Source: an uncultured bacterium (GTDB taxonomy: Bacteria; Patescibacteriota; Minisyncoccia; Phycocordibacterales; UBA6065). From it: DNA of 64,000 nt. This document shows, piece by piece, positions 7,874 through 59,692 of this stretch. Position numbers and translations under genes: made by a program. The DNA is taken from positions 143,995 through 207,994 of the forward strand of contig CBIMES010000001.1 in the NCBI GenBank assembly GCA_966243015.1, in the 5' to 3' direction. Under the pieces are notes generated by a model, which was given only the letters and a program-made list of their open reading frames with translations, searched no databases and had not been told where the DNA came from. Numbering within the stretch: the first letter of the stretch is position 1; the number at the start of each line of letters is the position of its first letter.

Positions 7874-7900
7874 GTCGGGCTCTTTGCTATACTTAATCAT

Positions 7901-11993: not shown

Positions 11994-12375
11994 GTTCAGG
12001 GCTCTCACATGGGCGCTTTTGGGCGTCGCGCTCGTGGGTACCTATGTTCTCTCTCATAGGCTCGAGAGCGGTTCCGGCAATGCCGCCGCGGTCTATCTTT
12101 CGACCGGCTCGACGCGCGAAATTACCCTTTTCACCGATAGGGTCGAGCCTCGGGCGCTTTCCGCGCGGGTTGGCGACGAGATCGTCTTTTCGATAGGCGA
12201 CCAGAGCATCCACAACATAGCCGAGGAAAGGCAGAGCAGGAGCGCCCCGCGACTCGAGTCCGGCGAGATCGGTCCGGGCGACAGCTACGTGGTGAGCTTC
12301 TCGGTGCCCGGTGTGGTATCTTTCTATGACCGCATGAATCTCGACCTGCGCGTAACCGTAACCGTCACCGAATGA
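11932..12375 (+). CDS. hypothetical secreted beta-rich protein
   Basis: Start uncertain, as the ORF overlaps the upstream gene by ~60 nt; hydrophobic N-terminal segment followed by a beta-strand-rich domain. Confidence 0.35.
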   Translation: MALSTYLTMEQEKSTEYPKTKFRALTWALLGVALVGTYVLSHRLESGSGNAAAVYLSTGSTREITLFTDRVEPRALSARVGDEIVFSIGDQSIHNIAEERQSRSAPRLESGEIGPGDSYVVSFSVPGVVSFYDRMNLDLRVTVTVTE

Positions 12376-13689: not shown

Positions 13690-14306
13690 AGTGTTTTTGT
13701 TTCACCGTCATCAAGTCGACCTTTGTGATTCTCCGCCAGTCGCCGGAACTCCTTCTTTGCCCTGTGTATGAGCGTGGCTATCGTTCCGGGGGGCTTGCGC
13801 AGGATGTCCGATATCTCCTCGTAGCTGCGGTCGTCGAGGAACCGAAGGACGAGCACCGCGCGGTACTGGGGATCAAGCTCGTCCAACACTATTCTTACGT
13901 TCGTGCGGAGGAATCCCTTGTCGAGCTCGCCGGCGACGTCCTCGTCAGCGGCGATCGTCTCGACCAGAGTCACGCCCTCGTCGTCGTAGGCGGGATCGTC
14001 GAGAGAGCCGCCCGAGCGCTTCTTGCGTCGCAGGTAGTCGACGCTCTCGTTGTGGGCGATGCGGTATATCCAGGACGAGAATGCGAGGTCCTGGTCAAAG
14101 TCGTTGAGGTTCTCGTAGGTCTTGATGAAGACGTCCTGGAGGATGATGTCGGTCTCGTCAGGGGACGAGCGGGCGATACGCCTGACATAGCGCCGAAGGG
14201 GTTCCTGGTATTTGGCAATGATGCCGGCGAACTCGTCAGGGGACTCAAGGGATTTCCTGACCAGCTCGGCATCGAGCGCCTTGTTGCTCGTGGTCTCTTC
14301 TGCCAT
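13686..14306 (-). CDS. ECF-type RNA polymerase sigma-70 factor
   Basis: Region 2 (DVFIKTYENLNDF...WIYRIAHNESVDYLRRKK) and region 4 (YRAVLVLRFLDDRSYEEISDIL...GTIATLIHRAKKEFRRL); start placed at MAEETT. Confidence 0.8.
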   Translation of the reverse strand: MAEETTSNKALDAELVRKSLESPDEFAGIIAKYQEPLRRYVRRIARSSPDETDIILQDVFIKTYENLNDFDQDLAFSSWIYRIAHNESVDYLRRKKRSGGSLDDPAYDDEGVTLVETIAADEDVAGELDKGFLRTNVRIVLDELDPQYRAVLVLRFLDDRSYEEISDILRKPPGTIATLIHRAKKEFRRLAENHKGRLDDGETKTL

Positions 14307-14390
14307 TGGATACAGTATACCCTGTTTGGGAAAGGTTGGGGCGGCGCCGAGGGTTGCCTGTGGCAAATAATCTGCTATTATGGGGCGTAT

Positions 14391-14462
14391 TCCGGGATAG
14401 CTCAGCGGTAGAGCAGTCGCCTGTTAAGCGATTGGTCGAAGGTTCGATCCCTTCTCCCGGAG
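14391..14462 (+). tRNA. tRNA-Asn (anticodon GTT)
   Basis: Hand-folded cloverleaf with a 7-bp acceptor stem TCCGGGA/TCCCGGA, D-loop AGCGGTAGA, anticodon loop CTGTTAA and T-loop TTCGATC; CCA is not encoded. Confidence 0.8.
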
Positions 14463-14474
14463 CCTAAAATATTG

Positions 14475-14500
14475 AGCGCCCGTCAGGGCGCTTTTGATTT
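14475..14500 (+). terminator. Rho-independent terminator after the tRNA
   Basis: AGCGCCC-gtca-GGGCGCT followed by TTTGATTTT. Confidence 0.7.
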
Positions 14501-14561
14501 TCGAAGGAGCCCTGGCAGGCGCGCGTTTCATCCGTAGTAGACCTTTGATATAATCATATCC

Positions 14562-15035
14562 ATGAAAAAGATATTGGGCGTCTCTTGCTTTTTGGCACTT
14601 ACGGCCGGGTCGGTAATGATACTTGGCGGAACCTGGGGCATCGTCTTTACGTACAAGAATGTCGCGAGGGAGCAGATCACGACGCCTGCCGACGCCTCTA
14701 TCCCGAACGCCCCCGTTCGCGGGCCGCTTACCCTGAAAGCCCAGGCTGATATTATCCGCCATCACGTTCTTGAGACAACGGGCGGCAAGACCTACTCTCA
14801 AATGCCGCAGAAAGTCCAGAAGGTTGACGAAAAAGGGGACCCTGTCTTGGACGAGAACGCCCAGCCTGTCATGGTTTCAAATGATGCCCGCAATATCTGG
14901 GTGACGGCGACAGCACTTATCACCGCCCTGAACCTCGGCATCATCACCTATGTGTTCTCAGGGTTAATCGTGTTCCTGGGTTTTGTATCTATTTGGACGG
15001 GCATTGCCTTTCGGGCGCTGCGAAAGGGTCTATAG
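14562..15035 (+). CDS. hypothetical membrane protein
   Basis: 157 aa with N- and C-terminal TM helices. Confidence 0.4.
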   Translation: MKKILGVSCFLALTAGSVMILGGTWGIVFTYKNVAREQITTPADASIPNAPVRGPLTLKAQADIIRHHVLETTGGKTYSQMPQKVQKVDEKGDPVLDENAQPVMVSNDARNIWVTATALITALNLGIITYVFSGLIVFLGFVSIWTGIAFRALRKGL

Positions 15036-15066
15036 GCATTGATATCAGGTCGTCAACGTACGTCAC

Positions 15067-15540
15067 GTGAAAAATTCACTCAAACTCATAACCGCGGTCC
15101 TTGTGTCGGAGCTCGCGGGCGTCCTCGGTTCGGCCTTTACTGTCTCGGCGATCCCGAATTGGTACGCGACCCTCGCCAAGCCGGCCCTCAACCCTCCGGG
15201 CTGGGTGTTCGGCCCTGTCTGGGTCACGCTCTATGCGCTCATGGGCGTCGCGGCATTCCTTGTGTGGAGGGAAGGCCTCGGTCGCAAAGACGTCCGAAAG
15301 GCCCTTTCTGTTTTCATTATCCAGCTCACCCTCAACGCATCATGGTCAATCGTGTTTTTCGGTCTGCAGAGTCCGGTGTGGGCGCTCGTGAATATTGCCC
15401 TTATGTGGCTCGCCATTGTGTGGACCATGATTCTCTTCTTCAGGATATCTAAACCCGCGATGTTTCTTCTTGTTCCTTATGTTGCGTGGGTGAGCTTCGC
15501 GGCTTATCTCAATTACTCCATATGGATTCTTAATTCCTAG
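15067..15540 (+). CDS. tspO: TspO/MBR family tryptophan-rich sensory protein
   Basis: Five TM helices and Trp-rich motifs (NPPGWVFGPVWVTLY, ASWSIVFF, WLAIVW). Confidence 0.8.
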   Translation: MKNSLKLITAVLVSELAGVLGSAFTVSAIPNWYATLAKPALNPPGWVFGPVWVTLYALMGVAAFLVWREGLGRKDVRKALSVFIIQLTLNASWSIVFFGLQSPVWALVNIALMWLAIVWTMILFFRISKPAMFLLVPYVAWVSFAAYLNYSIWILNS

Positions 15541-15677
15541 CCTCGGAAGAGGCGCTGGCGTCTGTTGCCGCGACCCGTTGTTGACCAAACTGGATTTGCG
15601 TACTAATGTGTGTTCCGGCATATGTAACGCCGTTCTTTACCTTCAACCATCAACAGCACCCAGGAGACACGTATCAA

Positions 15678-16042
15678 TGCGCACAAAGGAACTCAGGAAA
15701 ATCCTTCTTGACCATCACGCCCGATGCTCTCGAAAGCCTCGTTCATCCTTCACTATCGAACTGATGGCCGGCCTCGCGGTCGGAATCATCGGCTTCAAGG
15801 ACGCCGACGGCGAGAGGGGTATCGTCTTCGACAAGTCCGTCGTCAGGCTTAAGGGCAATTCTGTATTGAGGGATGACGGTCTCTCGATCAAGGGATTTCC
15901 GAGCGGCCTCGCCGGTCTCGTGGTCGTCGTCCTTCCGAAGGTCTCGACCTGGAATGAGTTCAGGGACATCGTCGATGGCCATATCGTCCGCAAGGACGGG
16001 TCGAGGATAGAGTGGCTCGAATCGGAAGTCGCTCTCGCCTAG
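15678..16042 (+). CDS. hypothetical protein
   Basis: ATG preceded by AGGAGA 8 nt upstream; the longer listed ORF start lacks an RBS. Confidence 0.35.
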
Positions 16043-16060
16043 TCTGTCCCTATCTATCGA

Positions 16061-16087
16061 GTCGCCCTTACGGGCGACTTTTCTTTG
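16061..16087 (+). terminator. Rho-independent terminator
   Basis: GTCGCCC-ttac-GGGCGAC followed by TTTTCTTTG. Confidence 0.7.
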
Positions 16088-16157
16088 CGTGGGGTTTTGA
16101 AAGGGCGCCCGGCGTAAGCCGGGCGCCCTTCCTCATGAGACGTACGTCAGTAAAGAG

Positions 16158-17066
16158 CTAGATGTTCGATCCGTTGCCCCCATTTGTTCCGTTCGATGTG
16201 TTCGAGGCCGAGTTGCTGTACCAGACGCCGTTATACCAGTAGCCGTTCGAGGAACTGTTCGTTCCGGTGCTGCTGTTGCCTGTCATGCTGGATGCGCTTG
16301 TCGTTGGGTAGCTATACCACGCTCCGTTGTACCAGTACCCGCTGCTCGCGGTGGCTCCGTTGAACCCGTCGCTCATCGGGTCACCAGAGACAAAGCCGGT
16401 CACGCGTCGGGCCGTGGTGGTTGATGTGTCAGTGCTGTCCGTTCCCGTAACGCCTGTTGTCGTGGTGCTGTTCGAGGTACTGTACCAGACGCCGTTATAC
16501 CAGTAGCCGCCTTCCGTCGACGCGTTGCTTGTCGAGCTTGTCAGTCCGTAGGGGTAGGTGTACCAGATTCCGTTGTACCAGTATCCGTTTGACGTGCCTG
16601 TGTTCGGCGCGACGCCGGTGGGGTTCATTCTCTGCGTGATGGACTGGGCGAGGGAGTTCCTGGTGCCCACGTCGAGGATTCCCGTGACGGGCAGGCCTCG
16701 AGAGAGCTGATAGTGAATAAGTGCGTCCCTCGTTATCTCCCCGAAGTACCCTCGGGGTACGCTTGGGTCAAGGACAAGGTATCCGCCCTCGATGAGGAAT
16801 CCCTGGAGGTCGGCGACCGCCTGGCTCCGGGAACCGACCGTCAGGTCCCCGACGCCCGTGAGCCAGAAGCCGCCCTGTGGCGTGTATCCGGCCCATGTGG
16901 TCGCCGCGCTCGTCGTGCCGCTTCCGATTGTCGTTGAGTTGGTGGTGGTTGAGGTGAGGGTTCCGGCCGTCGACGTCTGAGCCTGCGCTGACGTGGCGGC
17001 AACGGTCAGGGCGACCGCCAGCGCGGCGACGCCCACCCTAACTGAAATTAATGTGCGATGTTTCAT
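16158..17066 (-). CDS. secreted peptidoglycan-binding (PG_binding_1) protein with four GYWYNGxWY repeats
   Basis: Signal peptide, Thr/Ser-rich linker and a PG_binding_1-like core (QAVADLQGFLIEGGYL...ITRDALIHYQLSRGLPVTGILD); then four GYWYNG[IVA]WY repeats separated by S/T-rich linkers. Confidence 0.6.
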   Translation of the reverse strand: MKHRTLISVRVGVAALAVALTVAATSAQAQTSTAGTLTSTTTNSTTIGSGTTSAATTWAGYTPQGGFWLTGVGDLTVGSRSQAVADLQGFLIEGGYLVLDPSVPRGYFGEITRDALIHYQLSRGLPVTGILDVGTRNSLAQSITQRMNPTGVAPNTGTSNGYWYNGIWYTYPYGLTSSTSNASTEGGYWYNGVWYSTSNSTTTTGVTGTDSTDTSTTTARRVTGFVSGDPMSDGFNGATASSGYWYNGAWYSYPTTSASSMTGNSSTGTNSSSNGYWYNGVWYSNSASNTSNGTNGGNGSNI

Positions 17067-17212
17067 GGCTTTTTAAGTTATGGCTTATAAGCTCATTGTG
17101 GCGGGGATGCGCACAGCACAACCCGTCGTGCCACCTAGGTAGTACGACGGGTTCTCGATAAAAATTCAGAAAATGCCTTCCTCCGTCAGTTCATCTGTTT
17201 CCTAATGTTTTC

Positions 17213-18073
17213 CTAGATGCAGGCGCAGTAGTCGGTGTCTCCTCCCGAACAGGTGTCAACAGTGTTTGCGGGAATTTGGCACGTTATGTCATAAGGGACA
17301 GCAGCCTTTGTGCAGAAGTTAAATCCTGGCAGGCCACCGATGCCGCCGCCTCCGAACTGGGCGTATGCGCTAGGTATGAGGCTGATTTGAATCGTGCCAT
17401 TCGGAATTGACGCGGTTGAGACGCCGGTGCACGCGTTCGCGAACGATCCGTCCCCGCCCGCTATCCAGCAGCTTGAGGTTGCGGGGCCGTATATGCGGCA
17501 GAACTGGGCGGCGAAGCCCCCGTCCTCTCTGAACACGGCTTTTCCGGGGCCCTCTTCGGCCTCGATATAACTTCCCGTGCTCATGGTGTTCACGCACGAG
17601 GTATAGGGTGCAGGAACGATAGGGCAATAGCTCTTGGCGCTCGCCGCCATGGGCAGGGAGGTCGGGGTGACGAGCTCGGCGCCGAACGCCGCCGACTCGG
17701 CCGCCGCGTCCGCGTAGTACACGTACGAGTCGTCCTTGCTGTTGGGGATTGCCGAGATGTACCCTTCGTTTACGAGCTCCTGCATGCTTGCGTTGAAGGC
17801 CTGGGTGCCCTCGCGGGCGATTGAGTCACCGGTTCCTCCCGCGCAGTACGAGCCGCCGCAGTTGTAGTTCCTCGGCACCTTGCCGGTGGCCGTCTTCTTC
17901 ACAGATATCGCCGTCTCTATCTGGTGCACCTGGCTTTTCTTGCTCGCGTCGTCCGCCTTGGCCCTCGCTGACGCGGTTGAATACATGGCGACGCTCGAGA
18001 TGAGTGACACGATCGAGACTACGACGAGGAGCTCGATGAGGGTGAAGGCCCGATGCGCGGTGTTCGGATTCAT
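17213..18073 (-). CDS. type IV pilin-like protein with prepilin N-terminus and a Cys-rich C-terminal domain
   Basis: N-terminus [27 protein letters not shown] (class III signal, G/A-FTLIE); more than 12 Cys in the C-terminal half. Confidence 0.7.
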   Translation of the reverse strand: MNPNTAHRAFTLIELLVVVSIVSLISSVAMYSTASARAKADDASKKSQVHQIETAISVKKTATGKVPRNYNCGGSYCAGGTGDSIAREGTQAFNASMQELVNEGYISAIPNSKDDSYVYYADAAAESAAFGAELVTPTSLPMAASAKSYCPIVPAPYTSCVNTMSTGSYIEAEEGPGKAVFREDGGFAAQFCRIYGPATSSCWIAGGDGSFANACTGVSTASIPNGTIQISLIPSAYAQFGGGGIGGLPGFNFCTKAAVPYDITCQIPANTVDTCSGGDTDYCACI

Positions 18074-20036: not shown

Positions 20037-20070
20037 GGAAAAAGCCGCGAGTGACTCGCGGCTTTTGTTT
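20037..20070. terminator. bidirectional Rho-independent terminator
   Basis: AGCCGCGAG-tgact-CTCGCGGCT flanked by A5 and T4GTTT; follows the stops of convergent genes. Confidence 0.75.
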
Positions 20071-32500: not shown

Positions 32501-32719
32501 TCTATGACCTTCGGATACGGCCTCACCACCCCATACCCGAACCTGGTAACCACGACCCATACGTTCAGCAGGTACAACACCGCTGTCTCTGGCCGAACCG
32601 TTCTCGACATGATACTCAACGCGACGACCAGCGTTGACGCAAGACTCTCCGACAGGGCCCGCGAGAACATCGTGGTCGTATGGGGGGGGGAATCAACAGT
32701 ATGGCGCTCGAGGGAATAA
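29552..32719 (+). CDS. giant secreted SGNH-esterase / tail-fibre-repeat protein, N-terminal 1,055 codons (frame interrupted in a G9 tract)
   Basis: Signal peptide; Ser/Pro-rich linker; SGNH domain 1 (block I NIATWGDSLTAGAGG, block V DSIHLT); at least five V/LG[IV]GTTTPSARLxVTG repeats; start of SGNH domain 2 (FDGDSMTFGYG). Terminates 29 nt after a G9 run. Confidence 0.8.
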   Translation: MKFRVVSFVLVGALLTLAPLFSHAQERGGASLFFCKVFSIFTKADCSPSADSATAEITQAPLLPSPSGEGSKPSSVVTNVADSDSPAREVSSGVGPYPSLSRSDVQSMIDSSIERLPAPTTVSPSEPSVQTVVYRSSSAQGDSIVSASARMVSDLRADIQEGRVSVPLSAVSGQSSVLSGDAELANATSTTFFSTVGRFATGVVDTLSSAVATIASLFVENLTATNATSTNSVVTGGLSAGSLSLGTALAVTSGGTGASDASSARLNLGLAYATSSDISATLFNNIATWGDSLTAGAGGTPYPTQLASLTGATVYNGGVGGETSTQIKARMLAATDKHAHPTIIWAGRNNYSSPETVKADIAEMVAALGHNNYLIIGVINGNYPSEYSGGAGHTLITNLNSDLSETYGSRFIDMRQYLVSLYDSGIPQDVTDHDNDIVPSSLRSDSIHLTTAGYLAVAQRIYQDISVLRSGATGSVVNPQTLQYAFSNPFPIGATTRAGGYFSQVGVGTSTPARALSVVGGDVEIDQSRFYYAKDASGNSVRVAGVSGSNLFLGGSYVSNLYLGTGFTGQSQALTIANGGSVGVGTTTPSARLSVTGAAGSGDIFAVASSTNARLLTVTSAGALGVGTSSPSALLSVSGSSAFAGLATFSSNVFMTGGSLYLQSSGAGFYLPGNGGIAGNNGAINLTAAGTNQNITLTPSGTGAVGIGTTTPSARLAVTGTAGTSDIFALASSTNARVLTVNSAGNSFFGGNISATGTIASNMGSGNGQALTVITDGSTRYANLAFNEVASNKALISWIGSGAGLGARNNTLELAAENSGSDIAFRTGGATKMILTDGGLLGIGTTTPSTALDVVGVVNASGGYTYNTSSSGSGLTVNTTANTTYNNISFTENSSLRSLISWIGSNAGLGTRNNTLELSAEASGGDIALRAGNATRLFVDAGGNVGVGTLTPGAKLDVGGSVKATSYARGVATTTSQLVFDGDSMTFGYGLTTPYPNLVTTTHTFSRYNTAVSGRTVLDMILNATTSVDARLSDRARENIVVVWGGESTVWRSRE

Positions 32720-34098
32720 CGCCGGTCGCAACGTATAACGAGCTGGTGGCGTATGCTCGAGAGCGAAGGGCGGCGGGATTCAAGGTGATCATAGGCACGA
32801 TGGTCTCTCGAACTGGCTCAAACGGCAACGGAACGTTCGACTCGCAGAAGAACACCTACAACGCGCTCATCAGGGCGAATTGGGCAAATTTCGCCGACGG
32901 CATAGCCGACCTCGCTGGCGATGCACGCCTCGGGGCAGACGGTGCGTACTCTAACTTGACGTATTTCCAGGCGGACGGAATTCATATCAATGACACGGGT
33001 GCGGCAATAGTGGCGGGAATCGTATCTACGGCGATTGATCGCCTGACGGAGGGGAACGTGAAGGACCTGAACGACCTGTACGTCACTGGGAAGATGGGTA
33101 TCGGCACGACGTCTCTATCTGAAAAGCTCTCTGTCGCTGGTAACATAATTGTTACCAACGGTTCACGAATATACGGCTTTGATTCGTCTGGTAATAAGGC
33201 TGTCATAGCTCAGATTGCCGCCGGGCTGAACGATCTCTATCTCGGCGGTAGCTACGTTGGCAACCTGTATCTTGGTACGGGTGCGGGGACTCAAAGGGTG
33301 ACTGTCACCAACGGCGGAAACGTTGGTATCGGCACCACCACCCCTTCCGCCCAGCTCACCACTTCGGGCACCGTCCGCTTCGCCTCGCTTGGCTCTGCGG
33401 GCGCGAACCTCATCACGGACTCGCTCGGCAACGTCACTGTTTCCTCTGACGAGAGGCTTAAGGACGTGCAGGGGGAATTCGCGAGGGGCCTCAGCGACAT
33501 TTCCAAGATTAAGCCGATCACGTACAAGTGGAACGCCGTGTCGGGCATGGAGACCTCCGGTCTCTATACGGGATTCTCTGCTCAGAACGTGCAGTCATCC
33601 ATACCCGAGGCAGTCGCGACAGACTCGCGAGGGTACCTTACCCTTTCCGACAGGCCGATTCTGGCGGCGGTCGTCAACGCCCTCAAGGAGCTTTCGGCAA
33701 AGGTTGACGGCATCATGTCCTCGAATTTCACCTATGTGAACGAGGCGTCGATCGGCGTCCTCAACGTCGGCAAGCTTAACATCCAGGGCGACATCTGCGT
33801 CGATAACGTGTGTATCACGAAAGAGCAGTTCAAGAGCATCTTCACGCAGAACGGCTCGACGGTGTACATGCCTCAGCCTGTGCAGGATACGTCTTCAGAG
33901 GCAGAGGGCCTCGTTCCCACCGAGACCGCCTCGAGCACCTCGGACGTTCCGGATACGTCGAGCGCGTCTTCGACGTCCGAGGAGGCGCCTTCCTCGGTCG
34001 ACGCCGAGGTCGCGTCTTCGACGCCTCCTGCGGAGGAGGTCGTTTCAGGGGATTCTGAGCCCCAGGAATCCGAGACCCCGGGCGCGCCCGTTGAATAA
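32680..34098 (+). CDS. giant secreted protein, C-terminal 472 codons (continuation in the -1 frame)
   Basis: Rest of SGNH domain 2 (GGINS block III-like, DGIHINDTG block V); more GIGTT repeats. Then the phage tail-spike intramolecular-chaperone (Peptidase_S74-like) domain (SSDERLKDVQGEF...ITYKWN...GFSAQNVQSSIPEAV...ILAAVVNALKELSAKVDG) and an S/T/E-rich tail. Confidence 0.8.
   Translation: MGGGINSMALEGITPVATYNELVAYARERRAAGFKVIIGTMVSRTGSNGNGTFDSQKNTYNALIRANWANFADGIADLAGDARLGADGAYSNLTYFQADGIHINDTGAAIVAGIVSTAIDRLTEGNVKDLNDLYVTGKMGIGTTSLSEKLSVAGNIIVTNGSRIYGFDSSGNKAVIAQIAAGLNDLYLGGSYVGNLYLGTGAGTQRVTVTNGGNVGIGTTTPSAQLTTSGTVRFASLGSAGANLITDSLGNVTVSSDERLKDVQGEFARGLSDISKIKPITYKWNAVSGMETSGLYTGFSAQNVQSSIPEAVATDSRGYLTLSDRPILAAVVNALKELSAKVDGIMSSNFTYVNEASIGVLNVGKLNIQGDICVDNVCITKEQFKSIFTQNGSTVYMPQPVQDTSSEAEGLVPTETASSTSDVPDTSSASSTSEEAPSSVDAEVASSTPPAEEVVSGDSEPQESETPGAPVE
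32682..32690 (+). repeat. G9 homopolymeric tract at the frame break of the giant gene
   Basis: tatGGGGGGGGGaatc; G7 or G10 would restore a single ORF reading VVVWGG(G)INSMALEG. Confidence 0.9.
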
Positions 34099-48066: not shown

Positions 48067-48091
48067 GGTGTCATTTCAACATAATTCTCCG

Positions 48092-48120
48092 AAAAAGCCG
48101 GCTTTTGCCGGCTTTTTCGC
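48092..48120 (+). terminator. Rho-independent terminator after lysS
   Basis: AAAAAGCCGGC-ttttg-CCGGCTTTTT. Confidence 0.75.
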
Positions 48121-52477: not shown

Positions 52478-53797
52478 ATGACGTTCATCAAGAATAAGCT
52501 CAAGACCGTCGTTGTCGCGCTTCTCACCGCAGAGGCGCGCCTTGCGTTGCGCCTCCGTCAGCCAAAGATCGTGGCCGTGACGGGTAACGTCGGCAAGACC
52601 TCGACCAAGGACGCAATCTTTGCCGTGCTCGACAGGTCTCTTTCCGTGCGCAAGAGCGAGAAGAGCTTCAACAGCGAGATTGGACTTCCTCTCGCCATCC
52701 TCGGCCTCGACAATGCCTGGTCTTCGCTCGGCGGCTGGGTCAAGAATCTGTGGGACGGTCTTCTCATCGCCCTCGGTGTCGGTCACGAGGGTCGCAATTT
52801 TCCCGAGTGGCTCGTGCTCGAGGTCGGCGCCGACCATCCGGGCGACATCGAGAGGGTGTCCGCCTGGCTTCACCCGGACATCGTCGTGCTGACGCGCATG
52901 TCTGACGTCCCTGTGCACGTCGAGTTCTTCGCGGGCCCCGAGGCGGTGCTCGCCGAGAAGATGTTCCTCGCCAAGGCACTCAAGCCTGGCGGGACGCTCG
53001 TGGTGAACGCGGATGATAAGCTGTTCATGAATGCCGTGCGAGACCTCGACGTGGCCAAGGTGCTGTACGGCGAGGGCAAAGGCGCCTCGTCTCGCATCCT
53101 CGAGTCGGAGGTTGTATACGACGGCTCGGCGCTCTTCCTGCCGCGCGGCCAGTATGCGCTCATTGGCTCGGACAAGTCCGCCGCCGATCACGTGGAGGTT
53201 CTCGGCGTGCTCGGCAAGCATTTGATGTACCCGCTCGCCGCCGCCCATGCCGTTGCCGGAATCCTCGGCGTGCGTGGTGACTTCTCGAATGCTTTTTTAG
53301 ATCTTGAGACCCCGCGGGGCAGGATGCGCGTGCTCGAGGGCAAGTCACAGTCCGTCGTTATCGACGACTCGTACAATGCCTCGCCGATTGCCGTCACTGA
53401 GGCTCTCAAGACTCTGGGCGCCCTTGCCACGCGTGGTCGCAAGATCGCGGTTCTTGGAGACATGAAGGAGCTCGGCGAGCTTTCCGACAAGGCGCACAAG
53501 GACGTGGGCGGCGTCGCCGGCCAGACCGTCCACACGCTTGTGACGGTGGGCGAGAGGGGCTCAATGTACGCTACGGGCGCTCGCTATGCGGGTCTTGCTG
53601 CCGACCGCATCCTCTCGTTTGACGATTCTGTCGCGGCGGGCGAGTACCTCTCGAGCATTGTCCGCGCGGGCGACGTCGTGCTCGTGAAGGGCTCTCAGTC
53701 CATGCGCATGGAGCGTGTCTCAAAGGCCCTCCTTGCCGATCAGTCGAAGGCAATTGACGTCCTGGTCAGGCAGGAGTCTGAGTGGGAGAGGCGCTAG
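52478..53797 (+). CDS. murF: UDP-N-acetylmuramoyl-tripeptide--D-alanyl-D-alanine ligase
   Basis: P-loop VTGNVGKTSTKD and the MurF-type DDSYNASP motif. Confidence 0.75.
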   Translation: MTFIKNKLKTVVVALLTAEARLALRLRQPKIVAVTGNVGKTSTKDAIFAVLDRSLSVRKSEKSFNSEIGLPLAILGLDNAWSSLGGWVKNLWDGLLIALGVGHEGRNFPEWLVLEVGADHPGDIERVSAWLHPDIVVLTRMSDVPVHVEFFAGPEAVLAEKMFLAKALKPGGTLVVNADDKLFMNAVRDLDVAKVLYGEGKGASSRILESEVVYDGSALFLPRGQYALIGSDKSAADHVEVLGVLGKHLMYPLAAAHAVAGILGVRGDFSNAFLDLETPRGRMRVLEGKSQSVVIDDSYNASPIAVTEALKTLGALATRGRKIAVLGDMKELGELSDKAHKDVGGVAGQTVHTLVTVGERGSMYATGARYAGLAADRILSFDDSVAAGEYLSSIVRAGDVVLVKGSQSMRMERVSKALLADQSKAIDVLVRQESEWERR

Positions 53798-53912
53798 TCT
53801 CGCCCTGCGTTTGACGCCACTTCGTCGCGGCTGTTTACAGAATGTTGTCTCGGTGGTAGTTTGCAGATGAATCTGATCGTCTGAAACCACAACTACACAG
53901 GAGAAACACACC

Positions 53913-54518
53913 ATGAGAGAATCCGGTCTCGGATCATTATCCCCCGATGCGAACAGCATCTTTGAGTCAGCGGTCTCGGCATATAGAAGCGATCTGGACA
54001 GAGAACGCGTCAATCGAGAGGAGTCTCAGAGAAGGCGCCAGGAGTATGATGCCAAGCTCCAGGCCCTGCCTCGTGCCATCGACAGGCTTCGAGCCTCGAT
54101 TCCTCGTTTCGACGAGTATCTCAGGGGCGGCAGGGAGCAGGAGATCGTCGTTCGGCTCGAGGATGACGCGGATCTCGCGCTCACCGCGTGCAAAAAGCGC
54201 GAAGACATCGTGAAGAGGGGAACCGTCCTCGCCTCGTATTCCCCCGAAGGTCTGCGGAGCGACGTCGATAACTGGGAGTCATTCTCGGTGGCGCTCTTTG
54301 ACGGGACCTGCGCAGTCGTTGTCCGTAGGCTTCTGAAGATTCACGGGGTCTACTTGGTCCTGCCGAAGGACAGAATGCCCGACGGTGCGCAGAGGTCTAT
54401 CGACCGCTTCGTCGACCTTGTCCTGGCCTGCGTCGATGGCTCTGGTGCGGTCGTGGAGGGCGCTGCGCTTGACCTGTTCCGCGATCTCTTCACCCACCGT
54501 TCCCCATGCGATTCCTGA
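53913..54518 (+). CDS. hypothetical protein
   Basis: 201 aa; GGAG RBS upstream; terminated by a strong hairpin. Confidence 0.4.
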   Translation: MRESGLGSLSPDANSIFESAVSAYRSDLDRERVNREESQRRRQEYDAKLQALPRAIDRLRASIPRFDEYLRGGREQEIVVRLEDDADLALTACKKREDIVKRGTVLASYSPEGLRSDVDNWESFSVALFDGTCAVVVRRLLKIHGVYLVLPKDRMPDGAQRSIDRFVDLVLACVDGSGAVVEGAALDLFRDLFTHRSPCDS

Positions 54519-54533
54519 GACATTGTCCCGCGA

Positions 54534-54562
54534 GCCGCCCTCAACCGAGGGCGGCTTTTTCG
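54534..54562 (+). terminator. Rho-independent terminator
   Basis: AGCCGCCCTC-aacc-GAGGGCGGCT followed by TTTTT. Confidence 0.75.
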
Positions 54563-54663
54563 TGGAAAGTTTGTGGCTGCGTGGTTCGTATCTTTACTGT
54601 GGCACACGCGGAATGGTTTCGGGCGCGGCACTGACGTTTATCCGTAATTTACGCAAAACGCAT

Positions 54664-54849
54664 ATGAACAGATACGGACCAAAGGCCCAAAAGAAAATAA
54701 CCAAGGTTATGCACGAGTGGAAGCGTGGCGACCTGAAGAGTGGCAGGGGCGGAAAGAGAGTCACGAGTCGCAGGCAGGCCGTCGCCATCGGTATATCGGA
54801 GGCGCGCAAGGCGGGAGGGAAGGTGCCGAATAGGACGAGGTCTTCATAG
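54664..54849 (+). CDS. small basic conserved-looking protein (61 aa)
   Basis: MNRYGPKAQKKITKVMHEWKRGDLKSGRGGKRVTSRRQAVAIGISEARKAG; Lys/Arg-rich. Confidence 0.4.
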   Translation: MNRYGPKAQKKITKVMHEWKRGDLKSGRGGKRVTSRRQAVAIGISEARKAGGKVPNRTRSS

Positions 54850-54883
54850 AAAAAAGCCGCACCCGAAGGTGCGGCTTTGCTAT
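54850..54883. terminator. bidirectional Rho-independent terminator
   Basis: AAAAAAGCCGCACC-cgaa-GGTGCGGCTTTGC between convergent genes. Confidence 0.75.
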
Positions 54884-54901
54884 GGGCCTGCTGCCTGAAT
54901 T

Positions 54902-55780
54902 TCACGACTGCCTGACGGGCGTCCACTTGCCCGAGCGCGATTCGCGCTCGAAGATGCGGATATACGAGTTGGTCTTCTCCGACCTGATGCTCGCGCGCAG
55001 GAGTTCCTGCGCCTCGGCGAGTTCGGGAAAGACCGTCGCGTCTAGTTCCATGCTGAGGAAGCGGTAAAGGTCTGGACCAACCTTAAACTGCGTCTTCTCG
55101 ACCAGAAGCTGTCGGGTGAGCTCATAAAGCGGTCTTACGGCCTCGTCGAGCGCCTTTTGGCCTTGGAATCGGTCGAAGAACTGGCTGACCAGACCCTTGG
55201 CCCGCTGGGCGTTGTCGCCCTGGATGAGGGTGATGTGATTCACCATCGCCACGACGCGACGCAGTCCGTCGGCGCTCGTGAAGGTCACCTGCGTGTTGAG
55301 CTTTCCGTCGGGGCCGACGAGTCGCGTGAAGACGTGTCGGGTGACATAGTCCTCGCGCTTTCTCGACGCTTGGACGGCGCTCTCGTTGAGGCTGAAGACG
55401 GTGCTGACGATCTCGTCGATGGCGCGCTCGCGGCTGGCGATCTCGGCCGAGGCGACGGCGAGCTGGGTGGTGAGCTCGTTGAGCTCGGCTTGCGCCGTCG
55501 CCATCTTTTCCCGAGAGCTGTCGCGACGCCGGGTGTGCCTCACATCGGGATCGTCAATCCAGTTGAGAATTTCATCTCGGAGCTTGGTGTCTTTTTTCGT
55601 CCCGCGATGTTTGGCGTCTGTCACGGCGAATTTTTTTACATTGCTCTTGAATGCCCGGTGTCCTTTGTTCCAGCGTCGGCGCGCGTCGCCTTCTTCCTTT
55701 ATGAGTTTGGTGATTTCCGCCTGCTTTGCCTTGATCTTTGCCTGCAGTCTTTTGATGTCGGTTTTAGTTGCGGTGGCCAT
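54902..55780 (-). CDS. hypothetical coiled-coil protein
   Basis: 292 aa; a Lys-rich N-terminal coiled coil and a C-terminal globular half; no recognisable motif. Confidence 0.4.
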   Translation of the reverse strand: MATATKTDIKRLQAKIKAKQAEITKLIKEEGDARRRWNKGHRAFKSNVKKFAVTDAKHRGTKKDTKLRDEILNWIDDPDVRHTRRRDSSREKMATAQAELNELTTQLAVASAEIASRERAIDEIVSTVFSLNESAVQASRKREDYVTRHVFTRLVGPDGKLNTQVTFTSADGLRRVVAMVNHITLIQGDNAQRAKGLVSQFFDRFQGQKALDEAVRPLYELTRQLLVEKTQFKVGPDLYRFLSMELDATVFPELAEAQELLRASIRSEKTNSYIRIFERESRSGKWTPVRQS

Positions 55781-55944
55781 TGCTATCGATGTGCTTTCCG
55801 TTGGGCGACTTCCCGTCGCGGTTGGGGAGGGCCTCGTGGCCCGTGTCTGGGGAAGACCTTACCATATCAGATAAGGTTTGGGCAAACAGGTCAAGGCTTC
55901 CGCTGATTGCCGCGGGCAGGTATCCTGTATGCCAGTCTATGAAC

Positions 55945-56376
55945 ATTCATTATGAACGCGACAGGGTCGCTGAGGCACTGGAAACCCCAGAGGGAATAGA
56001 GCGTGTCGAGAGGCTGTTTCTCGACGTCGACGGCGTCGTGGGCTTTGCCTTCGACCCCATGACGGGCGACCACGAGCTGAGCGTTAGGGGAGACCCTCAC
56101 GACTCGGCGAGGCTCAACCTGTTCTGTAGGATGCGGGAACGGCTGACGTCCGAGGATTACGAGCGCGCCGAGCGAGCTATCGTCATCGGCAGGGCGGTTC
56201 ATCTGCCTGGCCTCGAGCACCCGCTCGTGCTTCTCATCCTCAAGGAGAAAGATTCGCTTGAGTTCTTCGAGGGTCAGGTGTTCCGTCTCGGCATCGCCAT
56301 TCCGGTGGGGTCGAGCTTCAGAAGAGCCGGCAAGCACGATGTTGCCTCGGTTGCGGCCAACGGCGGCTTCCGATAA
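55945..56376 (+). CDS. hypothetical protein
   Basis: 143 aa; divergent from the preceding gene with a ~160-nt shared intergenic region. Confidence 0.35.
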   Translation: MHYERDRVAEALETPEGIERVERLFLDVDGVVGFAFDPMTGDHELSVRGDPHDSARLNLFCRMRERLTSEDYERAERAIVIGRAVHLPGLEHPLVLLILKEKDSLEFFEGQVFRLGIAIPVGSSFRRAGKHDVASVAANGGFR

Positions 56377-56382
56377 AAACAC

Positions 56383-56416
56383 AAGGCCGTCCAGCGTACG
56401 CTGGACGGCCTTTTCA
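56383..56416 (+). terminator. Rho-independent terminator (26-nt perfect palindrome)
   Basis: GGCCGTCCAGCG-ta-CGCTGGACGGCC followed by TTTTCATT. Confidence 0.75.
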
Positions 56417-56540
56417 TTCGCGTACAGTGCGCCTCTTATCCACAGGCCCCTATGTGCTGCTCGCGCTTATTCTGCTACGGTGAAAAGTGGGCGGGAGTTC
56501 ATCAAAAACCAGACACAAAAATCAAACCATGAGGAAACTA

Positions 56541-57010
56541 TGAACAGGTTACCGTCGCTAGACCCGGACGTTCTTGCCCTGGGTGCCTCTTCGTCCACTG
56601 CCGGTGTCGTTCCGACATTTGGGGGCATACCGGGTGTGGCGGAGAAGATAGAGAGGCTCCGGATCATCGATCCGGAATTCGATGACTACATCGCCAGCAT
56701 TCCCACCGTAAGGGTGTTCGTCAATGAGGATCATCTCGCCCTCAAGGGCAAGATTCTTCTGTCGCACATCGACGAGGAGGGAGGTGGTCGCGAGGCTGCC
56801 ATCATCATGGTCGAACGGGGGAGCGGCGTTAAGTCCGCCCTCATCTTCGTTCGCAGGCATGTAAACGGATACGGTAACGAGTGGGCCATTCCAGCAGGCC
56901 CCCTCAGCCCTGGTCTCCAGAAGTGGTCGAGCAAGGCCGTTATCGAGCTCAATGACTCCGAGCTCGGCAGCGTCATGCTCGCCCTCTATGGATACAGGTC
57001 ACCCCATTAA
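56541..57010 (+). CDS. hypothetical protein
   Basis: 156 aa with no recognisable motif. Confidence 0.35.
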
Positions 57011-57034
57011 ATTTTCGCGGGATTTGATGTGTTC

Positions 57035-57072
57035 AGCCGGTTGGTCGCATGCGACCAACCGGCTTTTTATTA
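57035..57072 (+). terminator. Rho-independent terminator
   Basis: AGCCGGTTGGTCGC-atg-CGACCAACCGGCT followed by TTTTATT. Confidence 0.75.
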
Positions 57073-57102
57073 CGGTCCTTATTGCTTGGGTTCACAAAAA
57101 CG

Positions 57103-57138
57103 AAAACCGCGCCAGTACTGGCGCGGTTTTCGTTTTTG
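57103..57138. terminator. bidirectional terminator adjacent to the tRNA-Glu 3' end
   Basis: AAAACCGCGCC-agtact-GGCGCGGTTTT flanked by A/T runs on both sides. Confidence 0.7.
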
Positions 57139-57210
57139 TGACCCTACAGGGAATCGAACCCTGATTTAAAGCTTGAGAAGCTTCCGTCCTAGCCGTTAGA
57201 CGATAGGGCC
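57139..57210 (-). tRNA. tRNA-Glu (anticodon CTC)
   Basis: The reverse complement folds as a cloverleaf with acceptor stem GGCCCTA/TAGGGTC, D-loop AACGGCTA, anticodon loop TTCTCAA and T-loop TTCGATT. Confidence 0.7.
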
Positions 57211-57258
57211 GTGCGAAATATACTACAGTAAAACCCTAAAATGTTCAATATCTCGATG

Positions 57259-57292
57259 AAAAAGGGCCCGCCGGAGTGCGGCGGGCCCTGAA
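57259..57292 (-). terminator. Rho-independent terminator
   Basis: AGGGCCCGCCG-cact-CGGCGGGCCCT followed by TTTTTCAT on the minus strand. Confidence 0.7.
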
Positions 57293-57301
57293 GGGTGGAC
57301 T

Positions 57302-57643
57302 CTATTCAATTATGTCGCCCAGTCGACGGCGTTCCGCGCGGAGCTGGTCCCCGAGGTCCTGGATGGTTGCCGAGGACCTGAGGAGGTCGATGTCGCCGAG
57401 CCGTGAGAGCTTTGCGCGGAGGTCGCCCAGACTGTCGATGAGGGCGGTCGTGTCGCGCCTTGCCTTTTCGTCCGTCATCTGGCGCAACGAGTCTTCGAGC
57501 CCGGCGACAATCCCTCTGACGAGGGTCTCGCCGGCGTCGGCCTGCTGGGTGATGTCCGACTGGGTCCTTCTGAGGGATTCTGACGTTTCGTCGAGGCGCG
57601 AGATGGCTGATGTGAGTCCTGAGAGGTCAATGTTCTGGAGCAT
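57302..57643 (-). CDS. hypothetical coiled-coil protein
   Basis: 113 aa, alpha-helical, rich in Leu/Asp/Arg. Confidence 0.4.
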   Translation of the reverse strand: MLQNIDLSGLTSAISRLDETSESLRRTQSDITQQADAGETLVRGIVAGLEDSLRQMTDEKARRDTTALIDSLGDLRAKLSRLGDIDLLRSSATIQDLGDQLRAERRRLGDIIE

Positions 57644-57773
57644 GGGTGAGGGTGTTCTGCTATATATTATACCACTTTTAAAATAAAAATCAAGTATAGG
57701 TCGGACCGTATCTTAGAGGGCGCTCTGGGGCCGCGCCGTGATAGTATTGAAGGGTCTGTTATAGAGTAATAAA

Positions 57774-58328
57774 TTGCCACTTATGTATATTTTCCTTATT
57801 GTCCTTGGCGTCATCGTCCTCTGGGCGGTGCTTGCCTACAACGGCTTCGTCCGCAAGGTGAACCACGTGAAAGAGTCGTGGGCAGATATCGACGTGCAGC
57901 TCAAGAGGCGCTATGACCTGATCCCGAATCTCGTCAACACGGTGAAGGGCTACGCGACCCACGAGACCAAGACCTTCGAGAGTGTCACCGCCGCTCGCTC
58001 TGCGGCTATGGGCGCTGGCGGCGCGCACGACAAGGCGGTCGCCGAGAATCAGCTCGTCGGTGCGCTCAGGTCCGTTTTTGCCATCGCTGAGGCATATCCA
58101 GAGCTCAAGGCCAATCAGAACTTCCTCGAGCTTCAGCGCGAGCTCTCCGACACCGAGAACAAGATTCAGTCCGCCCGACGCTTCTACAACTCGAACGTCA
58201 TGACCCTCAACACCGCGGTCGACTCGTTCCCGGGCAATGTCATCGCCAAGAACTTCGGATTCGCCAAGTCAGAGTACTTCGAGCTTACCGAGGAGGCTGC
58301 AAAGCAGCCTGTTGAAGTTAAGTTCTAA
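57774..58328 (+). CDS. lemA: LemA family protein
   Basis: N-terminal TM followed by the LemA core (YNGFVRKVNHVKESWADIDVQLKRRYDLIPNLV). Confidence 0.85.
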   Translation: MPLMYIFLIVLGVIVLWAVLAYNGFVRKVNHVKESWADIDVQLKRRYDLIPNLVNTVKGYATHETKTFESVTAARSAAMGAGGAHDKAVAENQLVGALRSVFAIAEAYPELKANQNFLELQRELSDTENKIQSARRFYNSNVMTLNTAVDSFPGNVIAKNFGFAKSEYFELTEEAAKQPVEVKF

Positions 58329-59246
58329 ATGAATCTCTACACCCAACAGTCCCACAATGTCTGGAAGACCTGGACTCTCATGTCCGTGTTCTTCATCATG
58401 GTCATGGCGCTCGGTTTCGTGTTCTCGCGCGTGTACGGTAACGTGAACTTTCTGTACGTCGCTGTACTCCTGAGCGTCGCCATGAACGTCGCAAGCTACT
58501 GGTACTCGGACAAGATTGTCCTTCGCATGTCGGGCGCGAGGGAGGCAAGCCGCGACGAGCATCGCGAGCTCTGGAACGTCACCGAGAACCTCGCTATCGC
58601 GGCAGGCCTGCCGATGCCTCGCCTCTACGTCATCGAGGACGAGGCCCCGAACGCCTTTGCCACGGGCAGGAACAAGGAGCACGGGGCGGTGGCCGTCACG
58701 ACGGGCCTTCTCGCCGCCCTCGACAGAAGCGAGCTTGAGGGGGTCGTGGCGCACGAACTCGCCCATATCGGGAATCGCGATATTCTCCTTCAGACGGTCG
58801 TGGTTATCCTTGTCGGTTTCATCACCTTGCTTTCTGACTTCTTCATGCGCATGGGGTTCTTGAGCAATAGGGACAACGACAGGGGAGGCGGGCAGGTGCA
58901 GCTCATTATCACGATCGTCGGCATCGTCCTCGCAGTCCTCTCGCCGATCGTCGCGGTCATCATACAGCTCGCCATCTCGCGCAAGAGAGAGTTTCTCGCC
59001 GATTCTACGGGCGCGCTTATGACAAGGTATCCCGAGGGTCTCGCGAGCGCGCTTCGAAAAATTGAGGGTAGCGGTCTCCGCATGCGCAAGGCGAATCACG
59101 CCACGGCACACCTCTTTATCTCCGATCCCTTTACGGGCGAGGGTAAGAAGGTCGGCTTCCTGACCAGGCTCTTCATGACCCATCCGCCGACCGAGGAGCG
59201 CGTGGCGGCCCTTCTGGGAGGCGGAGGTGCGGTCCAGACAAAATAA
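58329..59246 (+). CDS. htpX: zinc metalloprotease HtpX (M48)
   Basis: HELAHIGNRD (HExxH), four TM helices and the C-terminal glutamate region; tightly coupled to lemA. Confidence 0.85.
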   Translation: MNLYTQQSHNVWKTWTLMSVFFIMVMALGFVFSRVYGNVNFLYVAVLLSVAMNVASYWYSDKIVLRMSGAREASRDEHRELWNVTENLAIAAGLPMPRLYVIEDEAPNAFATGRNKEHGAVAVTTGLLAALDRSELEGVVAHELAHIGNRDILLQTVVVILVGFITLLSDFFMRMGFLSNRDNDRGGGQVQLIITIVGIVLAVLSPIVAVIIQLAISRKREFLADSTGALMTRYPEGLASALRKIEGSGLRMRKANHATAHLFISDPFTGEGKKVGFLTRLFMTHPPTEERVAALLGGGGAVQTK

Positions 59247-59281
59247 TGTATACTGACGGTATAACCCTATTCACGAAACTC

Positions 59282-59692
59282 ATGAAAAAGATACTCATCG
59301 GAATTGTCGTCGTCGCAGTTGTCGCCGCGGGCGTCTGGTTCGCGACCAAGGGCGGCGCGACCGCCCAGATCACCGGTACCGCAAGCTACTCTGACCAGGT
59401 GGATCTCCCTGCGGGAAGCGCCGTCGAGTACGTCCTCATCGACGTGTCGGAGTCGGGCGTCGACTCAGAGACGCTTGCCCAGAAGACCGTCATCACTAAG
59501 GGAGAGGGCTCTCCGTTCTCGTTCGTCCTCGAGTACAACCCAAAGGATATCAATCCGCAGGGCGAGTACTCTGTCGGTGCCCGCGTCCGTGTGAACGGCA
59601 ACATCTGGTGGACCAGCACCTCGAACACGCTCGTCATAACCAACGGTCACCCGACCGAGGGAGTCGAGATTAATCTCGTGAACGTTCGATAG
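59282..59692 (+). CDS. hypothetical secreted protein
   Basis: Signal peptide MKKILIGIVVVAVVAAGVWFA, then a beta-rich domain. Confidence 0.4.
   Translation: MKKILIGIVVVAVVAAGVWFATKGGATAQITGTASYSDQVDLPAGSAVEYVLIDVSESGVDSETLAQKTVITKGEGSPFSFVLEYNPKDINPQGEYSVGARVRVNGNIWWTSTSNTLVITNGHPTEGVEINLVNVR

Follow-up and report, generated by a model that had tools for sequence, protein, structure and literature searches.

Here, we report an analysis of a block of five open reading frames (ORFs) located at 53.8-57.1 kb of a 64-kb stretch of DNA (hereafter, the window), between murF, a gene of the division and cell wall (dcw) cluster, and the gene for transfer RNA (tRNA)-Glu(CTC). The encoded proteins are designated by their lengths in amino acids (p201, p61, p292, p145, and p156), and p113 is the product of a gene just outside the block. 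We conclude, with a probability of about 0.7, that the block is an inter-operon segment native to its Patescibacteria (Parcubacteria, Taylorbacteria-like) chromosome, in which a conserved frame is combined with the turnover of single genes in two spacers, and not one inserted element. The block itself is ordinary genome architecture for this group, and the value of the locus lies in p292 and its leader: new here are the homology between the C-terminal domain of p292 and the DUF3164 family and a covarying 5′ leader that falls outside Rfam.

The conserved frame emerges from comparison with related loci, which are denoted by L numbers. In the nearest relative found (L081; 86% identity for murF and 74% for p292), mraZ-rsmH-ftsL-ftsI-murF are followed by a p201 homolog (38% identity), the p292 gene on the opposite strand, a p145 homolog (65%), and a NUDIX gene. 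The order in L082, L085, and L086 is murF … p292 (minus strand) … tRNA-Glu (minus strand), followed by lemA, htpX, and a yscW-like (p148) gene, with 51-57% identity for p292 and 80-88% for lemA. Position and orientation of p292 are identical in all four of these loci, with identity in related loci ranging from 36 to 74%, and p201 homologs directly follow murF in L081 and, colinear with p201 at 24% identity, in L086; these placements speak against the proposal that the block is a single 3.4-kb unit. The genes between the anchors differ by relative and include those for NADAR, Cys-rich, methyltransferase-like, pilin-like, and other proteins. The expectation that the murF…lemA interval would be polymorphic among relatives is borne out insofar as gene content varies, mostly next to the tRNA 3′ end; the differences concern individual genes flanking the conserved p292 and p201, and presence or absence of the whole interval was not seen between relatives.

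The original prediction, made from the sequence of the window, held that the dcw cluster halts at murF and that the block may have displaced its distal genes. The halt is real: mraY, murD, ftsW, murG, and ftsQAZ are not found after murF, and a scan of the large ORFs that precede the dcw genes revealed none of them either. The genes upstream of the block are mreB, mreC, a PBP2-type transpeptidase gene, lysS, mraZ, rsmH, ftsL, ftsI, and murF, the first ORFs of this series having been named via synteny with L002 and L081. Nothing has been displaced from the cluster, however, because it ends at murF throughout the group: murF is the final dcw gene in 8 of the 8 relatives examined, with the truncated cluster present in L002, L081, L082, L085, and L086 among others, and in distant Parcubacteria (L003-L005), tRNA-Glu(CTC) comes right after murF, 70-600 nucleotides (nt) downstream on the same strand. 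The same tRNA gene is a shared landmark in L002, L082, L085, and L086, and the association of murF with tRNA-Glu is an old one. In the clade of the window, tRNA-Glu lies 3.3-5.9 kb from murF on the strand opposite to it, as against the murF strand in L003-L005; an old inversion of the murF-tRNA-Glu arrangement is the simplest reading.

At the DNA level, conservation is seen in murF, in p292 except for its 5′ third, in about 100 nt preceding this gene, in the tRNA gene, and from lemA onward. Two replaceable spacers lie between them, at 53798-54901, with p201 and the p61 gene, and at 55897-57136, with p145 and p156, the latter abutting the tRNA-Glu 3′ end. The second spacer contains no gene in L082, one in L086, two in the window, and four in L085, and the gap from tRNA-Glu to p292 measures 278, 887, 1358, and 2908 nt, respectively. 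The arrangement is identical in 13 conspecific contigs, which were retrieved via p156 and are hence biased towards carriers.

In our interpretation, the vertically inherited frame comprises mraZ-rsmH-ftsL-ftsI-murF, p201 in some relatives, p292 on the opposite strand, tRNA-Glu(CTC) on the same strand as p292, and lemA-htpX, and single genes are gained and lost in the two spacers, that is, from murF or p201 to the p292 3′ end and from the p292 promoter to the tRNA-Glu 3′ end. The additions in the lineage of the window would be the p61 gene, p156, and, outside the block, p113, with p145 common to the window and its nearest relative. The block is a mosaic by age, in which p292 is ancient, p201 is of clade level, p145 is shared with L081, and p61, p156, and p113 are seen at this locus in the window species only.

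The five ORFs of the block are genuine open frames. Their GC content at third codon positions (GC3) is 0.69-0.77, compared to 0.75-0.87 in known or core genes and 0.58-0.66 in the longer ORFs that overlap the block genes, with one short alternative of 81 amino acids reaching 0.73. All five frames, in two orientations, had been correctly predicted, the sole amendment being the length of the fourth product, which is 145 and not 143 amino acids. The description of all five as lineage-specific and lacking recognizable domains holds only in part: p201 and p145 are clade-restricted, p156 has no detectable homolog, and no domain was found for p201 or p156, but p292 has 191 homologs across Patescibacteria and a C-terminal domain that resembles DUF3164, and p61 is a member of the DUF6496 family (PF20106).

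The individual genes differ in how widely they are shared. A clade-restricted, fast-evolving protein, p201 shows fewer nonsynonymous than synonymous differences per site (pN 0.44 < pS 0.76). Its gene is preceded by an AGGAG ribosome-binding site, with no hairpin between murF and p201; p201 is probably transcribed as the last gene of the dcw unit, by read-through from murF. Searches of PDB sequences gave no matches for p201, p145, or p156. The match of p61 to DUF6496 is full-length (78.7 bits against a gathering cutoff of 24; E = 4e-22; residues 3-57 on profile positions 1-57 of 58), and nothing sets it apart from the other small basic proteins of this family; it is noteworthy only as new at the locus, since the gene was found there in the window species and not in L081, L082, L085, or L086. 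Relatives of DUF6496 occur in 11 phage records, and the family is unmentioned in the literature searched. The p145 family is rare (6 representatives among 1.84 billion proteins); against the homolog at the corresponding position in L081, the ratio of nonsynonymous to synonymous substitution rates (dN/dS) is 0.20.

The claim that each gene is individually terminated proved accurate at the level of predicted terminators. A near-perfect GC hairpin with a T-run follows every ORF, with one hairpin shared by p61 and p292. The six hairpins of the region have 10-23 perfect pairs and energies of -21 to -38 kcal/mol, with a T-run after each; the five inside the block lie 3 to 25 nt past a stop codon or the tRNA end and have the hallmarks of intrinsic terminators (a GC-rich stem-loop plus a U tract). 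Perfect hairpins of at least 9 base pairs (bp) number 17 in the window versus 1.4 in shuffled sequences, and 6 of the 17 fall within 54533-57289 (2.8 kb), a density about 9 times that in the rest of the window. Every gene is individually terminated, we propose, because each turnover gene brings its own hairpin terminator; the hairpins would insulate each inserted gene transcriptionally, so that single genes could be gained without disturbing their neighbors. Four terminators of the window, at 6605-6632, 20040-20066, 48090-48119, and 54853-54878, have a common core (AAAAGCCGCG… / AAAGCCGC…GCGGCTTT).

An alternative account of the same features is that part of the block is non-coding, with p156, and perhaps p113, being chance ORFs in a GC-rich spacer and the hairpins merely terminating the neighboring genes. 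High-GC DNA does yield many long ORFs in all frames, and p156 is the sole match to itself among 5.8 billion proteins, with no domain found in Pfam, PADLOC, PHROG, NCBIfam, or PDB sequence searches. Nevertheless, the GC3 of p156 (0.70) is like that of real genes and exceeds that of a 100-amino-acid antisense ORF (0.64), although the 81-amino-acid one reaches 0.73; a GAGGA ribosome-binding site is located 7 nt before its ATG, and a dedicated 13-bp terminator 25 nt past its stop codon. In addition, p156 ranks first of 7097 ORFs compared with the p201-family profile and shares with that family a C-terminal L[FY]xxR[SG]P motif. Taken together, these observations make the chance-ORF account improbable. 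The score of p156 against the p201-family hidden Markov model is E = 0.26, and the further features common to p156 and the family are P..I..LR...P.F..Y and RRH; p156 may be a truncated p201 paralog, a relationship that we regard as suggestive and do not claim.

The block had also been suggested to be a possible islet integrated at the tRNA. A rival explanation along these lines is that an integrative islet entered at the tRNA-Glu 3′ end, has since decayed, with loss of its integrase and attachment (att) repeats, and now makes up the whole block or only the tRNA-proximal portion (p145 and p156, 55.9-57.1 kb). The block is indeed bounded by the 3′ end of tRNA-Glu(CTC), as stated originally, and this end faces the block. 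Like tRNA-linked genomic islands, the locus has variable content directly beside a tRNA 3′ end and different cargo in each relative, with 0 to 4 different genes in the spacer between the tRNA and p292. Further points in favor of this idea are the copper gene set that occupies the corresponding slot in L002, with a partial tRNA copy of 46 nt nearby, the phage relatives of DUF6496, and the GC3 values of p201, p61, and p156 (0.69-0.70), which are slightly below those of core genes. Unlike tRNA-linked islands, however, the block lacks an integrase, a direct repeat of the tRNA 3′ end, and any signature in its composition, and it contains conserved anchors and changes by single genes. No integrase or recombinase was found in 53.8-57.7 kb or its flanks, and Pfam, NCBIfam, and PHROG scans of the block proteins were negative in this respect. 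A 25-mer from the tRNA-Glu 3′ end, with 3 mismatches allowed, matches only the tRNA itself, and 14-mers with 2 mismatches give 1 match versus 0.56 expected, so that the anticipated att-like repeat does not rise above the level in shuffled sequence. There is no GC step at the block (0.53-0.63 inside, 0.54-0.65 outside), and both GC and GC3 look native; two of the genes within the block, p292 and p201, serve as syntenic anchors; the 13 conspecific contigs all have the same arrangement; and the inserted genes, each with its own terminator, look like separate units and not like one element. We consider integration of an islet, even a decayed one, distinctly improbable, and suggest that neither the end of the dcw cluster at murF nor patches of small genes rich in terminators should be read as islands in these genomes.

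The slot between murF and tRNA-Glu in L002 (Taylorbacteria; 11299-17448) contains csoR-like and DUF305-like genes, a copA-type ATPase gene, and genes for membrane proteins, all named from sequence. The 46-nt tRNA copy in this locus corresponds to the 5′ half of tRNA-Glu (96% identical), lies 142 nt beyond the tRNA, and may be a trace of rearrangement.

It is very improbable that the block is an anti-phage defense or toxin-antitoxin-like system, with the coiled-coil p292 and the divergent p145 forming a two-gene unit: the two genes diverge around a shared 158-nt control region that is kept in L081, purifying selection acts on each of them (dN/dS against L081 of 0.24 for p292 and 0.20 for p145), and p292 has weak coiled-coil matches to JetC/SMC, but these cover the helical hairpin only (TM-scores, that is, template modeling scores, of 0.15-0.2), p145 is missing at some 58 further p292 loci, and p292, as a lone gene with broad conservation, is unlike the patchily distributed defense genes. 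The search of PADLOC-DB 2.0 produced no significant match, with JetC (E = 0.012) and DpdH (E = 0.01) aligned over coiled-coil or low-complexity stretches, the former score being a coiled-coil artifact, and four of the proteins without any hit; NCBIfam likewise gave no defense match for the block proteins. The two genes are adjacent only in the window species and L081, clustering of the neighbors at 62 p292 loci revealed no recurrent partner family, and a distant p145 homolog (P0123 in L150; 29% identity), the one distant p145 locus checked, is in an unrelated context without a p292 gene. The p292/p145 pairing thus appears to be local and not a conserved system.

By its distribution, p292 is an ancient, Patescibacteria-wide protein, with homologs in Falkowbacteria, Kuenenbacteria, Uhrbacteria, Portnoybacteria, and Taylorbacteria, among others. 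An AlphaFold2 model built from a 38-sequence alignment (mean predicted local distance difference test score, pLDDT, of 85.9) consists of a long helical hairpin (residues 2-154) and an α/β domain (residues 164-292). No significant structural match in PDB or BFVD was found with the complete model or with the C-terminal domain on its own. The C-terminal domain matches phrog_846 (E = 3e-7) and, at the family level, DUF3164 (PF11363). The p292 of the window scores 15.4 bits on PF11363, below the gathering cutoff of 23.7; matches are found in 22 of 38 p292-family members (E up to 0.1; best 1.3e-5), and three p292 homologs carry a precomputed PF11363 match. For comparison, we assembled seven bona fide DUF3164 proteins of Mu-like phages, and the profile-profile alignment (hhalign) of the p292 family with this set gave a probability of 94.1% and E = 1.2e-7 over the C-terminal 123 of 215 columns. 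Residues 156-290 of p292 align to DUF3164 positions 87-209, that is, the last 60%, including a Y-I/V-R-x-Y-E-R strand.

As in the DUF3164 proteins of Sinorhizobium phage StopSmel (gp14) and Pseudomonas phage JBD67 (gp06), the motifs F-T/M-S-x-D-G and S-x-x-Y-I/V-R-x-Y-E-R…W are present in p292; unlike in these proteins, the first ~85 DUF3164 positions are missing, and a helical hairpin of ~155 residues takes their place. The genomic contexts differ as well. The gene for StopSmel gp14 (243 bits on PF11363) is located after those of transposases A and B, whereas p292 is a solitary chromosomal gene without transposase A/B, Ner, GemA, or Mor genes nearby, and no transposase neighbor was seen among the p292 loci examined. 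On these alignments, the C-terminal domain of p292 is homologous to the C-terminal part of DUF3164, a link that is new. We searched IMG/VR viral contigs for relatives of the p292 family and found none, and phage matches in tblastn reached E of about 0.1 at best; a phage origin of p292 was accordingly rejected, and we read p292 as a protein of the cell that has an old domain in common with a phage family. DUF3164 is an uncharacterized, very common early gene product of Mu-like transposable phages (209 phage records), and the DUF3164 papers in the literature searched give no function; the link to p292 offers a second context in which to search for the function of both families.

The long antiparallel helical hairpin combined with a small globular domain is reminiscent of the Chlamydia CT398 and Helicobacter HP0958 type of protein. 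HP0958 binds mRNA and RpoN. The Foldseek comparison of p292 with 4ilo_A (probability 0.99; TM-score 0.38/0.47) covers helices only and is not significant (E = 0.35), and the C-terminal domains are unrelated, with a zinc ribbon in CT398/HP0958 and a DUF3164-like domain in p292, so that the likeness is one of shape and not of membership. A profile search of PDB sequences with p292 returned weak helical matches, including a HEPN toxin (E = 0.06), which we rejected as coiled-coil noise.

Genes of the p292 family adjoin tRNA genes of many identities (Glu, two Met, Arg-TCT, Arg-CCG, Gln, Leu, Ala, Val, and Ile), the loci in question being L082, L090, L093, L094, L097, L105, L113, L114, L121, L123, L125, and the window. 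A tRNA gene lies at most 600 nt upstream of the p292-family gene in 9 of 40 loci, compared to the 2.4% expected from tRNA density farther from these genes (binomial p ~4e-7, uncorrected for relatedness). In L096, the p292 homolog is preceded at a distance of about 2 kb by tRNA-Ser(GGA), which is overlapped by a 493-amino-acid ORF (6454-8118) whose sequence resembles that of a large serine recombinase. Similar ORFs are present in four loci; a true integrative element may be located beside p292 in other genomes.

Because the DNA upstream of p292 is conserved and non-coding, the 5′ regions of all p292 homologs were compared. A common plan is apparent in 19 distinct leaders, 6 from GC-rich genomes (the window, L081, L082, and L084-L086) and 13 from AT-rich ones: a -10-like box, a hairpin (H1), a CCC linker, 2-3 nt, a second hairpin (H2) with a six-position stem and a GGGNN loop, 4-9 nt, GCACAUUGA, a Shine-Dalgarno sequence, and AUG. 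In the leaders of relatives, the -10-like box precedes H1 by 7-13 nt. The sequence of H1 is completely different between the GC-rich and AT-rich clades.

The stems covary. In the AT-rich group, an unfitted MAFFT alignment shows 94% pairing in H2, with double-sided changes in 4 of 6 pairs. The model-based alignment of this group (16 distinct sequences) has 85.5% of its cells paired, versus 24-44% when the partners are slid, with 10 of 12 pairs changing on both sides and 0 of 500 shuffles reaching the observed pairing; all six pairs of H1 show double-sided changes in the model-fitted alignment. MAFFT gave no common register for the GC-rich and AT-rich leaders, and the cross-clade table for H2 was therefore compiled by a fixed rule (6 nt before GGG, the loop, and 6 nt after). 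Across both clades, H2 is 92.6% paired versus 65% in shuffles (maximum 75%), and all 6 pairs undergo double changes, one position having G-C, C-G, and A-U in different leaders. The G-U pairs are confined to the p292 sense strand and would read as A-C mismatches on its complement, which points to an RNA transcribed in the sense of p292 and not to a DNA operator.

A covariance model of the AT-rich leaders (R1), run over 589 kb, gave 21 hits at E up to 1, of which 18 are significant; each of the 18 is on the sense strand and stops either at the beginning of a p292 homolog or shortly before it, the implied start codon in L096 and L134 being ~60-170 nt upstream of the one first picked. With the filters switched off, the best additional hits of R1 are two GC-rich leaders, those of L084 (E = 1.9) and L085 (E = 3), and both hits stop at the start codon. 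The model of the GC-rich leaders (R2) scores 72 bits on the window copy, its sole strong hit in the 64 kb, and its best non-self hits are the AT-rich leaders of L091 and L088 (E = 0.2 and 0.66). These cross-clade hits are weak, yet they end at or within a few nucleotides of the start codons of the homologs. Rfam 15 (4227 families), searched at E up to 1, contains no match to 55778-55900 or to the leaders of 8 related loci, and the Rfam scan of the block detected no element except the tRNA.

The invariant CCC and the invariant GGG of the H2 loop could form an H-type pseudoknot with connecting loops of 2-3 nt and 2 nt. The CCC:GGG pairs are 97.6% intact but do not covary, with two pairs that never vary and a third that changes only from C-G to U-G, and the pseudoknot is accordingly a hypothesis. 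In being a short conserved element between promoter and start codon, with covarying stems, invariant single-stranded nucleotides, and spacing that fits a compact pseudoknot, the leader is similar to ribosomal-protein autoregulatory leaders and to small H-type pseudoknot riboswitches (preQ1-I and SAM-II). It differs from these in belonging to no Rfam family and in that the Shine-Dalgarno sequence is not obviously sequestered. In preQ1-I, the pseudoknot strand comes from the 3′ tail; in the p292 leader, it would come from the 5′ flank.

In the mechanism that we propose, p292 would be expressed from its own promoter, with a transcription start predicted near 55848, through the ~70-nt leader with H1 and H2. 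At the 5′ end of the mRNA, H1 could protect the p292 message, and the leader could act on p292 translation or mRNA stability via a bound factor, most simply p292 itself, as ribosomal-protein leaders work. That H2 and the possible pseudoknot mediate some form of cis-regulation has, in our estimate, roughly even odds. A bolder proposal, that the leader represents a new class of Patescibacteria regulatory RNA, in which a compact pseudoknot would sense a small molecule or p292 and so set the level of a domesticated Mu-phage DUF3164-type protein, is unlikely on present evidence. A weaker copy of the leader in L136 (1413-1488, plus strand; 22.5 bits, E = 0.017), with H1, a CCCC linker, H2 with a GGGGG loop, and UUGAAAGGA, precedes the gene of a 107-amino-acid membrane protein, which has a tandem paralog, and not p292; the motif may be not exclusive to p292, and a small regulon may exist. 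Patescibacteria have small genomes, and to our knowledge, few regulatory RNAs have been described in them. A conserved leader with a testable hairpin and pseudoknot offers a starting point for experiments on an uncharacterized core gene in a group that is uncultivated.

Several points weigh against this overall interpretation of the block and of the leader. The spacer at the tRNA 3′ end is the most variable, which fits tRNA-directed insertion even with no att or integrase traces, and in L002 the slot contains the quite different copper gene set, with p292 missing. The relatives with the frame that were to hand number five or six, and all are metagenomic. Read-through from murF into p201 is deduced solely from the absent hairpin. 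As for p292 and its leader, no structural or functional analog of the C-terminal domain was found, so that autoregulation is a guess; the cross-clade hits of the RNA models are individually not significant (E = 0.2-3); and the CCC:GGG pairing shows no covariation, which leaves the pseudoknot unproven.

Coordinates (in the window) of the features of the block, the p292 leader, and the flanking genes
Feature	Position	Strand	Remarks
murF	52478-53797	+	Last recognizable dcw gene (mraZ-rsmH-ftsL-ftsI-murF); Pfam Mur_ligase_M, Mur_ligase_C
p201 ORF	53913-54518	+	201 amino acids
Predicted terminator, p201	54533-54556	+	10-bp stem, then TTTTT; -27.7 kcal/mol
p61 ORF (DUF6496)	54664-54849	+	61 amino acids; alternative start 54613 gives 78 amino acids
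Predicted bidirectional terminator common to p61 (+) and p292 (-)	54853-54878	both	11-bp stem, T-runs on both strands
p292 ORF	54902-55780	-	292 amino acids
p292 5′ leader	55778-55845	-	Structured; between promoter-like elements and start codon
p292 start codon	55778-55780	-	
Leader conserved GCACAU	55789-55794	-	
Leader hairpin H2	55804-55820	-	6-position stem, 5 standard pairs in window copy; loop GGGAA
Leader linker, invariant CCC	55824-55827	-	
Leader hairpin H1	55829-55842	-	
p292 promoter-like elements (TTGCCC, 18 nt, TAAGGT)	55856-55885	-	Read by eye; not called by consensus scan
p145 ORF	55939-56376	+	145 amino acids
Predicted terminator, p145	56383-56412	+	13-bp stem
p156 ORF	56540-57010	+	156 amino acids
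Predicted terminator, p156	57035-57064	+	13-bp stem, then TTTTT
Palindromic predicted terminator directly 3′ of tRNA-Glu	57092-57141	both	23 bp, -38.2 kcal/mol; bidirectional potential
tRNA-Glu(CTC)	57138-57210	-	ARAGORN; Rfam tRNA 61 bits; 3′ end faces block
Predicted terminator, p113	57263-57289	-	Just outside block; sixth hairpin of region
p113 ORF	57302-57643	-	Outside block; small helical protein gene between tRNA-Glu and lemA
lemA-htpX-yscW-like lipoprotein genes	57774-59692	+	Right-hand frame; Pfam LemA; 75-88% identity, order kept in L082, L085, L086

Several ENA and Logan assemblies, as well as an NCBI contig of 494 kb, also contain the block proteins. The host genome has a GC content of ~58%, and the closest murF among species-representative genomes is found in metagenome-assembled genomes of Patescibacteria (59%) and Candidatus Taylorbacteria (58%).

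The position between tRNA-Glu and lemA is occupied by p113 in the window species only; L082, L085, and L086 have no gene there. Although outside the block, p113 resembles its genes in kind: besides its own terminator, it has the strongest match to a sigma-70-like promoter in the region (TTGATT, 16 nt, TATAAT with TG; window positions 57302-57693 for gene and promoter). In L147 (806-1534; ~3x coverage), the C-terminal 65 residues of p113 are joined to the N-terminus of an ExeA-like AAA ATPase, the sequence departing from the window after 57497; given the low coverage, we treated this fusion as a probable assembly chimera and not as a real variant. Elsewhere in the window, a 472-amino-acid ORF (32680-34098) that follows the gene for a 1055-amino-acid protein with a GDSL-lipase domain contains a Peptidase_S74 (endosialidase chaperone) domain, which is usual in phage tail spikes and fibers.

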